64,000 nt of DNA from Promethearchaeati archaeon SRVP18_Atabeyarchaeia-1 (GTDB lineage: Archaea > Asgardarchaeota > Atabeyarchaeia > Atabeyarchaeales > Atabeyarchaeaceae). A program made the position numbers and the translations under genes. Each line of letters starts with the position of its first letter. Positions within the stretch are counted from its first letter, which is position 1. The DNA lies in NCBI GenBank assembly GCA_037308085.1, contig CP147779.1, positions 192,001 to 256,000 on the forward strand, given 5' to 3'. Shown here piece after piece: positions 10,592 through 62,786 of the stretch. The notes beneath the pieces are model-generated. The model had not been told where the DNA came from and ran no database searches. It saw only the letters and a program-made list of their open reading frames with translations.

Positions 10592-11221
10592 TCACATCTT
10601 CATCCATTCAAAGATCAAGTAGTTAACCTGACCCGACAGCGAGATCGTCGCGATAATGAACTTCTTTCTGACCGTCGTCGCAAGTCTTCCTGCCCTTACG
10701 GTTTCTATTGGGTTGATCGTTGAGCCCTTTGGCAAAGCATGCACTATGAAAGGCGCGTGGTCAATGCCCGGGCCACGCTGATAGACGCCGTAGTCGGCCC
10801 CAAACTTCAATCCAGGTCTAACAACATATCCTCTGTTCCTTAGATCCTTGTAGACGAGGTACTTGTCATCGAATCCATCATAGACTTTCTGCGCAAACTG
10901 TTGCAGTTCTTGGGCAGACATCTGATTCTTAGTCTTCGCATCAATCAGATTGATTCTCTTTTTCTCCAGTAAATAGAGAGCTTCCAACAAGGAGAGTTCG
11001 ACGGGGCATGTGAAGTCAAATGTCTTTGGCTTTCGAACCGATATAGGCTGACCATAGAAGCCTTCTTTATAGAGAGTTGACCCATCTTGTGGATCCCAAA
11101 CAATGACGTGCGTTTCGAAGAGCTCGGCTGTGATAGTCTTCTTGACCTCCGACTTCGAATTCGGCTCACCGATTTGTTTTTGCGCTTTGGCTTGTTCAGA
11201 GCTGTCACTGGGTTGTATCAT
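10592..11221 (-). CDS. endA: tRNA-splicing endonuclease (tRNA-intron lyase), catalytic subunit
   Basis: LSLLEALYL, VYKDLRNRGYVVRPGLKFGADYGVYQRGPGIDHAPF, GRLATTVRKK; the Tyr-His-Lys triad is intact. Confidence 0.96.
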   Translation of the reverse strand: MIQPSDSSEQAKAQKQIGEPNSKSEVKKTITAELFETHVIVWDPQDGSTLYKEGFYGQPISVRKPKTFDFTCPVELSLLEALYLLEKKRINLIDAKTKNQMSAQELQQFAQKVYDGFDDKYLVYKDLRNRGYVVRPGLKFGADYGVYQRGPGIDHAPFIVHALPKGSTINPIETVRAGRLATTVRKKFIIATISLSGQVNYLIFEWMKM

Positions 11222-39486: not shown

Positions 39487-39577
39487 GGGCCCGTGGCCTA
39501 GTCAGGATAGGGCGTCGGCCTCCGATCGATTGGGAGACAGCCGATGGTCGTGGGTTCAAATCCCTCCGGGCCCGCCA
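39487..39577 (+). tRNA. tRNA-Arg(CCG) with a 13-nt canonical intron (39526-39538)
   Basis: GGGCCCG/CGGGCCC-G-CCA; anticodon stem TCGGC/GCCGA; BHB central helix CTCC/GGAG; T-loop TTCAAAT. Confidence 0.95.
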
Positions 39578-43645: not shown

Positions 43646-43740
43646 GGGCCCGTGGCCTAGTCAGGATAGGGCGCCGGCCTTCGACCTTGTTCCTGGAAGA
43701 CAGCCGGGGGTCGTGGGTTCAAATCCCTCCGGGCCCGCCA
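43646..43740 (+). tRNA. tRNA-Arg(TCG) with a 17-nt canonical intron (43685-43701)
   Basis: Same body as tRNA-Arg(CCG); stem CCGGC/GCCGG; BHB helix CTTC/GAAG; encoded CCA. Confidence 0.95.
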
Positions 43741-50337: not shown

Positions 50338-50670
50338 TTGGCCGAAGACGAGGATATTGAAGAACTGAAGGAGAAAAGACTACGGCAGCTGCAGCAACAA
50401 ATAGTGGACGCTCGGAAGCAGGAGGAAGCGCGTAAGGAGTTTGAAGCTCAGAAACAATCCGCGCTTAGGCAGATCCTGACGGAAGAAGCAAGAAGCCGGC
50501 TGATGAATATCAAGATGGTCAAACCAGAATTCGCCGAACAACTAGAGATGCAATTGATCCAACTAGCTCAGTCTGGCAAGATATCAGCCCCACTAACGGA
50601 TCAACAGATGAAAGAGATCTTGGCGAAGCTGCAAAGCAAGAAAAGAGAATCCAAGATCTCATTTAGGTAG
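50338..50670 (+). CDS. PDCD5-like dsDNA-binding protein
   Basis: LRQILTEEARSRLMNIKMVKPEFA..LE.QLIQLAQSG. Confidence 0.93.
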   Translation: MAEDEDIEELKEKRLRQLQQQIVDARKQEEARKEFEAQKQSALRQILTEEARSRLMNIKMVKPEFAEQLEMQLIQLAQSGKISAPLTDQQMKEILAKLQSKKRESKISFR

Positions 50671-50794
50671 ATTCCGGGAAGGATCTGCTGAACTCGACAC
50701 TAGTAGGAATATTTAATTACGGATGAAGGCGTAAGTGAGAAATCATCTCCAAAGCGAGAGAGAAACGATAACCCAGGCAAAGGTGATGTCTAGC

Positions 50795-50999
50795 ATGGCG
50801 CGGAACAAACCGCTTGGAAAGAAATTGAGGTTGGGTCGTGCATTGAAGGAGAACAGGTCTGTCCCAACGTGGATTTCCCCTTGAACTCAGGTCGATGAGT
50901 GACTCAGTTTCAGAGGACCATTGAGTTGTGAAGACCAACAGGAAAGTCAGAACGCATCCTGGAAGGAGAAACTGGCGCAGTTCCAGTGTGAAACCTTAG
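50795..50999 (+). CDS. rpl39e: 50S ribosomal protein L39e, split by a 49-nt BHB intron: join(50795..50874,50924..50999)
   Basis: Spliced product [51 protein letters not shown] (51 aa), in the conserved position between PDCD5 and L31e; absent from the ORF track. Confidence 0.93.
50875..50923 (+). other. Predicted mRNA intron with an hBHBh' motif
   Basis: Outer helix CAAC/GTTG, central helix GTGG/CCAT, bulges AT^T and TG^A, inner helix TCC/GGA; contains an in-frame TGA and shifts the frame. Confidence 0.88.
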
Positions 51000-51008
51000 G
51001 CAAAGGAG

Positions 51009-51383
51009 ATGTGTCCCGAAATGTCATCTGAAAAGGGCAAGCGTGCCGAGAAAGCAGAGTTGGCAAAGGAAGAGGCAAAGCCAAAGTCTATGGTGCCTGG
51101 GGAAACAGAGAGTAAGCCCGTTGCACCTGAGCACATGGAAGAGAGGCTCTACACGGTTCCTTTGGGAAAAACCCGCTATGCGCCGTACTACAAGAGATCT
51201 ACCAGGGCAATCCGCCTGATCAGGATCTTCTTCACCCGACATATGAAAGCTGAGAGAGTTATCATCACTAAGGATCTGAATGAAGCGATCTGGGCTAATG
51301 GGATCAGAAATCCTCCGAGAAGAGTAAAGGTTCGCGCCACAAAAGACGATGAAGGGAACGTCACTGTATATCCCGTTGAGTGA
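51009..51383 (+). CDS. rpl31e: 50S ribosomal protein L31e (charged N-terminal extension)
   Basis: ERLYTVPL, KRSTRAIRLIR.F..RHMK, LNEAIWANGIRNPPRRVKV. Confidence 0.96.
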   Translation: MCPEMSSEKGKRAEKAELAKEEAKPKSMVPGETESKPVAPEHMEERLYTVPLGKTRYAPYYKRSTRAIRLIRIFFTRHMKAERVIITKDLNEAIWANGIRNPPRRVKVRATKDDEGNVTVYPVE

Positions 51384-62688: not shown

Positions 62689-62786
62689 GGGCCCGTGGCC
62701 TAGTCAGGATAGGGCGTCAGCCCTCTATGCAGCGGACAGGCAAGGAAAGCTGATGGTCGTGGGTTCAAATCCCACCGGGCCCGCCA
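62689..62786 (+). tRNA. tRNA-Arg(TCT) with a 20-nt intron (62728-62747) and atypical C33
   Basis: Arg tRNA body as in the other two copies; stem TCAGC/GCTGA; spliced loop CC-TCT-AA; encoded CCA. Confidence 0.85.

Follow-up and report, generated by a model that had tools for sequence, protein, structure and literature searches.

How does an archaeon obtain ribosomal protein L39e from a gene whose two halves lie in different reading frames? The question is raised by rpl39e in the window analyzed here, a 64,000-nt stretch of contig CP147779.1 (positions 192,001 to 256,000) from the genome of SRVP18_Atabeyarchaeia-1 (G000), which belongs to the same GTDB family as Candidatus Atabeyarchaeum deiterrae. 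A preliminary description of the window had assigned it to a probable Asgard lineage, which is borne out, and had proposed that rpl39e is interrupted by a bulge–helix–bulge (BHB) intron of 49 nt. The layout of the gene is as follows.

50781 to 50787, plus strand: Shine–Dalgarno-like AGGTGAT, 7 nt 5′ of the rpl39e ATG (direct reading of the sequence)
50795 to 50874, plus strand: rpl39e exon 1, codons 1–26 and the AT of the Ile27 codon (translation)
50875 to 50923, plus strand: predicted BHB intron, 49 nt (boundaries from colinearity with the intronless G002 gene and the BHB rule; the minimum free energy (MFE) fold agrees)
50924 to 50999, plus strand: rpl39e exon 2, A of the Ile27 codon, codons 28–51 and the stop TAG (translation)

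Shine–Dalgarno sequences of the AGGTGAT type are complementary to the 3′ end of archaeal 16S rRNA. The reading frame that begins at ATG 50795 is closed by TGA 50882–50884, inside the predicted intron, and the C-terminal half of L39e (24 residues) occupies a different frame at 50925–50999. Taken separately, the exon 1 half matches positions 1–19 of the Pfam profile PF00832 (Ribosomal_L39) and the exon 2 half positions 21–42, each with 30 bits. Excision of 50875–50923 gives a 156-nt open reading frame encoding a 51-residue protein that covers positions 1–42 of the 42 in the profile with 65.2 bits, against a curated cut-off of 21.6; the full-length match is obtained only with these nucleotides removed. 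The 51-residue L39e expected from the 49-nt excision is thus a complete member of the family, and it is colinear with an intronless orthologue. The predicted splice junction joins ...ACGUGGAU to AGUUGUGAAG, that is, ...CCAACGUGGAU to AGUUGUGAAGAC..., with AT and A combining into the Ile codon ATA. The start of the L31e gene follows 10 nt after the L39e stop.

An assembly artefact, or an intact rpl39e elsewhere with this copy decaying, had been named beforehand as grounds for giving up the intron. A wetland metagenome contig assembled independently in another study, with a depth of ~37, spans 50628–51161 and carries an identical insert, which argues against an artefact; its sole difference from the window falls shortly upstream of the rpl39e ATG. 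No second copy of L39e was found in G000, a single contig of 2.81 Mb that is 97% complete.

Independent evidence on the boundaries of the insert comes from the intronless relative G002. Its L39e has 51 residues, is 92% identical to the spliced product, and bears the public record name of L39e of Ca. Atabeyarchaeum deiterrae. The G002 gene matches exon 1 base for base to ...TGGAT and continues at AGT.... The resulting alignment gap cannot slide by a single base, and its ends equal both BHB cut sites. These sites are defined by the following elements of the predicted fold.

50856 to 50868, plus strand: outer (h, exon–exon) helix, 5′ strand GGTC..TC.CAAC (RNAfold; RNAalifold consensus of 14 sequences)
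50869 to 50872, plus strand: central 4-bp helix, 5′ strand GTGG (sequence, RNAfold, RNAalifold)
50873 to 50875, plus strand: 5′ bulge ATT, predicted cut 50874/50875 (RNAfold, RNAalifold)
50876 to 50880, plus strand: inner (h′) helix, 5′ strand, pairing with 50913–50917 (RNAfold, RNAalifold)
50918 to 50921, plus strand: central helix, 3′ strand CCAT (sequence, RNAfold, RNAalifold)
50922 to 50924, plus strand: 3′ bulge TGA, predicted cut 50923/50924 (RNAfold, RNAalifold)
50925 to 50936, plus strand: outer helix, 3′ strand GTTG.GA.GACC, partner of 50856–50868 (RNAfold and RNAalifold)

Two 3-nt bulges thus lie on opposite strands with a 4-bp helix between them, the arrangement that defines hBHBh′. 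Both the MFE structure and the centroid calculated by RNAfold for 50855–50940 are exactly this hBHBh′, plus extra exon–exon pairs. When the sequence was re-read, the coordinates, frames, helices and bulges of the preliminary description all proved correct, and the MFE fold was identical. The core of the outer helix (CAAC 50865–50868 with GTTG 50925–50928) is lengthened by six further pairs, and the inner helix, with its core of TCC 50876–50878 and GGA 50915–50917, comprises three to nine pairs across all 14 sequences. The central pair 50869:50921 is G·U in G000 and G–C, A–U or A·G in relatives. The stability of the fold is ordinary (z = −1.32; 17 of 200 shuffles equally stable). Cuts were predicted on the rule that both 3-nt bulges are cleaved behind their second nucleotide; for the tRNA gene at 39487–39577 of the window, this rule locates the intron at 37/38, the canonical position.

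Loosely defined BHB motifs (four central, at least three outer and at least three inner pairs, G·U allowed, intron of 12–120 nt) number ~16,000 per strand in G000 and are equally numerous in shuffled sequence, so that the motif alone is weak evidence for an intron. At a given site and length, the chance of such a motif is ~5e-5. The intron call is non-random because here the site and the length are set independently, by the alignment with the intronless orthologue, and match the BHB cut sites.

Comparison with relatives extends this picture. A Pfam search found L39e in 376 of 400 Asgard genomes, and the two-half pattern only in G000 and the same-genus genome G001; the ~374 other genomes with an L39e match show no such split, and the weak-scoring ones that were rechecked have a full-length, divergent L39e. 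G001 carries a 53-nt intron at the identical site, with a central helix GTGG/CCAC, bulges ATT/TAA and an inner helix TTCCC/GGGAA. Twelve metagenome loci (13 distinct contig sequences) were gathered through the neighboring L31e, which is 62–85% identical to that of G000. In all twelve, L39e is split at exactly the G000 site by a 50–53-nt insert; at locus L053 exon 1 is lost at the contig end. The 14 complete sequences (G000, G001 and 12 metagenome) all give a 51-residue product without stops, and intron length ranges from 49 to 53 nt across G000 and its relatives. A conserved intron position with BHB covariation in relatives, suggested earlier as a check, was therefore found in G001 and in the 12 metagenome loci.

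The same loci bear out the expectation that standard gene callers miss the gene: L39e is called at none of the twelve between the PDCD5-like gene and L31e. In the public gene calls for L039–L053, a gap of ~300 nt separates dsDNA_bind (PDCD5-like) from L31e at the split rpl39e. The L31e of locus L050 carries the nr name Ca. Njordarchaeum guaymaensis. In a three-protein tree the intron-bearing lineages form three subclades, with the intronless G002 as sister at 60% support; given this weak support, the tree does not discriminate between one gain and loss by G002. A database search for the spliced form of the protein from intron-bearing lineages had as its sole result the L39e of Atabeyarchaeum (92%), whose gene is intronless. 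Neither the intron-bearing pattern nor the spliced junction had a match in the metagenome contig collection, and the JGI contigs that carry the intron evidently lie outside it. A scan of the genome contig collection for eIF6 gave no match, and in two RNA-labelled runs there was no contig over the rpl39e stretch.

The pattern of substitution points to a gene under selection and to a structure that is kept. The exons of G000 and G001 differ by 16 synonymous and six non-synonymous bases; averaged over all pairs, the sequences are 84% identical in their exons and 58% identical in the interiors of their introns. From the 14 sequences RNAalifold recovered the hBHBh′ unaided, with the bulges in the same columns. 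Five pairs display compensatory double changes, including a central G–C to A–U and changes at three of the five pairs that make up the inner helix. On the hBHBh′, 95.9% of alignment cells are paired, compared with 27–50% for slid partners. The covariation score was reached by two of 500 shuffles, a result that derives from few events in related sequences. An A·G mismatch at the outermost central pair in L044, L048 and L052 implies a relaxed motif at these loci. The outer helix is made of rpl39e codons, so its synonymous sites are expected to be constrained: third codon positions are invariant at five of nine sites within the exon helices and at seven of 42 outside. Among the invariant positions are two fourfold sites, the A of CCA and the T of GTT, which pair with one another; in the intronless G002 these codons are CCT and GTC. 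Together the alignments lend modest support to a BHB structure that has been maintained through compensatory change.

The enzymes that such an intron would call for are encoded in the genome. The preliminary description had placed endA within the window, where it is indeed present.

10592 to 11221, minus strand: endA, catalytic alpha subunit, 209 residues (PF01974, 102 bits, and PF02778)
G000:C1:623841–624566 (= L037:1084–1809): second EndA paralogue, 241 residues, without the catalytic His and with a long acidic/Lys-rich insert

Among solved structures, the alpha subunit is most similar to the catalytic subunits of three heterotetramers, those from A. pernix, S. tokodaii and P. aerophilum (E = 5e-46). 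No gap interrupts the alignment across the Crenarchaea-specific loop, and a Lys falls opposite K44, the residue required for broad substrate specificity (PMC3241643). Asgard EndA is reported to be (alpha–beta)2 in type, with a broad-specificity loop (PMC5829648), and the His-less paralogue is probably the structural beta subunit. RtcB is also encoded in G000 (583 bits), so that the enzyme set comprises a crenarchaeal-type alpha/beta EndA and RtcB.

We consider it very probable that rpl39e contains an obligatory, archaeal-type BHB intron in its coding region, which EndA and RtcB would remove. In the pre-mRNA, exon 1 codons 21–26 would pair with exon 2 codons 28–32, and the ends of the intron with one another, to form the hBHBh′. 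The alpha/beta EndA would cleave after the second nucleotide of both 3-nt bulges; RtcB would then ligate the exons, restoring the Ile27 codon from AU and A, and would probably circularize the 49-nt intron. Only the spliced mRNA would encode the 51-residue L39e, and the unspliced message would yield a truncated peptide of 29 residues. With the intron at the same spot throughout this group of relatives, the tRNA-splicing enzymes almost certainly have to cut the rpl39e mRNA and rejoin it for L39e to be produced. The earlier proposal of a BHB intron removed by that machinery thus appears sound, being favored by the colinearity, the common site in 14 lineages, the compensatory changes and the single copy of the gene. 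On the simplest view, the intron would be a passenger, fixed and efficiently excised, in a lineage with tRNA genes saturated by introns of this kind, and no regulatory role has to be assumed for it.

The alternative closest to this reading accepts the intron and adds a regulatory role, in which splicing efficiency gates the production of L39e, and perhaps of L31e, and links tRNA maturation to ribosome production. The retention of the intron throughout a whole clade would fit, as would the overlap of the exon helix with translated codons and the start of L31e only 10 nt downstream. Against this, the other split genes of G000 are metabolic (ahcY, pcm) and unrelated to ribosomes, and the genes for eS30, eL42, uL11 and uS11 are uninterrupted. 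The intron interior is unconserved, BLAST found no other copy of the intron in G000, and an Rfam scan of the whole window gave no match at the intron; the sister lineage G002, moreover, lives without it. We therefore regard a regulatory function as unlikely. The gate itself could be the capacity of EndA and RtcB, or a leading ribosome that unwinds the exon–exon helix, and a role for either is similarly doubtful. There is likewise only a small chance that EndA/RtcB splicing is routine mRNA maturation in this Asgard clade, with rpl39e gated by the folding of the exon–exon helix before ribosomes invade. If the gate were real, output of L39e and of the coupled L31e would follow EndA/RtcB capacity, and the system would represent a prokaryotic precursor to mRNA splicing that is regulated and depends on a ligase.

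A second alternative dispenses with splicing altogether. The two halves might be translated separately, from ATG 50795 and from GTG 50928 behind an SD-like GAGG, and assembled in the ribosome as a split protein. The in-frame GTG 50928 does open a 23-residue reading frame, and a purine-rich GAGG or GAGGG lies ~10 nt upstream of the exon 2 GTG in most sequences; for these, the SD-like GAGG and the in-frame GTG before exon 2 leave separate translation of the C-terminal half a slight probability. However, loci L049 (GTT GCG) and L051 (GTT GTA) have no in-frame start at exon 2, and the purine-rich run, within window positions 50913–50930, is nothing other than the inner helix's 3′ strand. Separate translation also fails to account for the exact BHB geometry, for the compensatory changes, for the constraint on synonymous sites in the exon helices or for the Ile codon that AT and A form in agreement with the intronless orthologue, and we hold it to be very improbable.

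Translational recoding, in which a ribosome bypass of ~50 nt of the phage T4 gene 60 type, or a frameshift, links the two halves, is more improbable still. The resemblance to gene 60 lies in the interruption of a coding sequence by about 50 nt (49–53 nt here), with a stop soon after the start of the gap. Translational bypass requires matching take-off and landing codons. In rpl39e, unlike gene 60, these are lacking: across the 14 sequences, the triplet 5′ of the exon 2 GTT reads TGA, TAA, CGA or CAA and never an Ile or Trp codon (ATT, TGG), and what is conserved is a BHB rather than a take-off hairpin. A simple frameshift is impossible, since frame 1 is closed at TGA 50882–50884 and the exon 2 frame at TGA 50922–50924. 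No less remote is a decaying pseudogene or assembly artefact in an organism for which L39e is dispensable: although Korarchaeota and Caldiarchaeum are listed as lacking L39e (PMC3082918), the 14 diverged lineages have open exons with mostly synonymous change, a constant 51 residues, an SD-like sequence and, in none of the 14, an extra frameshift or stop inside the exons, and decay would not yield one fixed-site indel of 49–53 nt with a conserved BHB.

Further interrupted genes were observed elsewhere in G000. Outside the window, ahcY (AdoHcyase) contains a 34-nt BHB insert at G000:C1:488226–488259 (ACC CCAG TGT TTGCTT ... GGGCAA CTGG ACA GGT), removal of which brings the conserved motif ...EGHPSEVMDMSF... 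(...AAAEGHPSEVMDMSF...) back in frame. The pcm gene (PF01135; G000:C1:305429–306098), also outside the window, lies in two frames that match contiguous profile positions (2–62 and 61–208), with ~22 nt between the two matches; the strict BHB finder derived no BHB motif there. Within the window, ARAGORN labels the unspliced gene at 39487–39577 as tRNA-Gly(TCC). Removal of a 13-nt BHB intron (central helix CTCC/GGAG, bulges GAT/ACA) gives the loop CUCCGAA, that of tRNA-Arg(CCG). This gene and those at 43646–43740 and 62689–62786 have one common body and an encoded CCA, and from their sequences the three look like Arg isoacceptors, each with an intron. For Atabeyarchaeia in general, the passages on introns in the genome paper give introns in 92–95% of tRNA genes (PMC11291895). 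A box C/D or K-turn element in the interior of the rpl39e intron was considered and rejected, because relatives agree in only 58% of the interior and do not conserve its C/D-like letters.

Across G000, BHB hits that restore an open reading frame show no excess over frame-shifted controls, even with stronger helices or a codon-usage score. This census is uninformative rather than negative, because the signal is swamped by junctions between neighboring genes. In a tblastn pilot with the open reading frames of the first 400 kb of G002 against G000, a comparison blind to introns common to both genomes, the rpl39e intron was the sole find.

In the full-text literature searched, cbf5 provides the only BHB intron confirmed within the coding region of an archaeal gene, and no description of an intron was found for any ribosomal-protein gene of archaea. 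The BHB intron of the cbf5 pre-mRNA was reportedly described in Crenarchaeota by Watanabe in 2002 and Yoshinari in 2006. Its hosts include Aeropyrum, Sulfolobales and Desulfurococcales, and introns in other archaeal protein genes have been predicted and are unconfirmed (Yokobori et al. 2009, PMC2738675). In the Atabeyarchaeia genome paper (PMC11291895), the passages on introns contain no mRNA case. Like cbf5, rpl39e is a single-copy, translation-related gene with a short BHB intron within its coding region, in a host with a hetero-oligomeric EndA that has the broad-specificity loop; gain and loss among relatives are patchy and gene callers mis-annotate the gene. In contrast to cbf5, which encodes a pseudouridine synthase in Crenarchaeota, the host gene here encodes a ribosomal protein in an Asgard archaeon, and the intron is longer (49–53 nt vs. 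19–44 nt). Splicing of cbf5 has been demonstrated by RT-PCR, whereas that of rpl39e is deduced from sequence.

The hBHBh′ geometry, the predicted cuts and the pairing of EndA with RtcB are also those of the BHB introns and processing stems in archaeal tRNAs and rRNAs. In contrast to these, the rpl39e substrate would be an mRNA open to ribosomes, and its intron is not at a tRNA-like position. By analogy only, HAC1 and XBP1 of eukaryotes likewise have a short, non-spliceosomal mRNA intron whose removal involves joining by tRNA ligase or RtcB and changes the reading frame; there, however, the IRE1 endonuclease acts on twin stem-loops in place of EndA on a BHB, and the reaction is stress-regulated.

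The finding has consequences for annotation. Since gene callers miss the split rpl39e, errors can arise for such lineages in marker-gene sets, in estimates of completeness and in claims that L39e is lacking, and the absences of L39e in Korarchaeota and Ca. Caldiarchaeum (PMC3082918) may merit a check for a gene split by an intron. The claim of splicing is directly testable, because metatranscriptomes from the same wetland soils exist. For the Atabeyarchaeia, the rpl39e intron would mean that the rampant introns of tRNA genes, as given in the intron passages of the genome paper (PMC11291895), spill over into mRNAs, and it would take tRNA-type mRNA splicing to the Asgard archaea, the closest prokaryotic relatives of eukaryotes.
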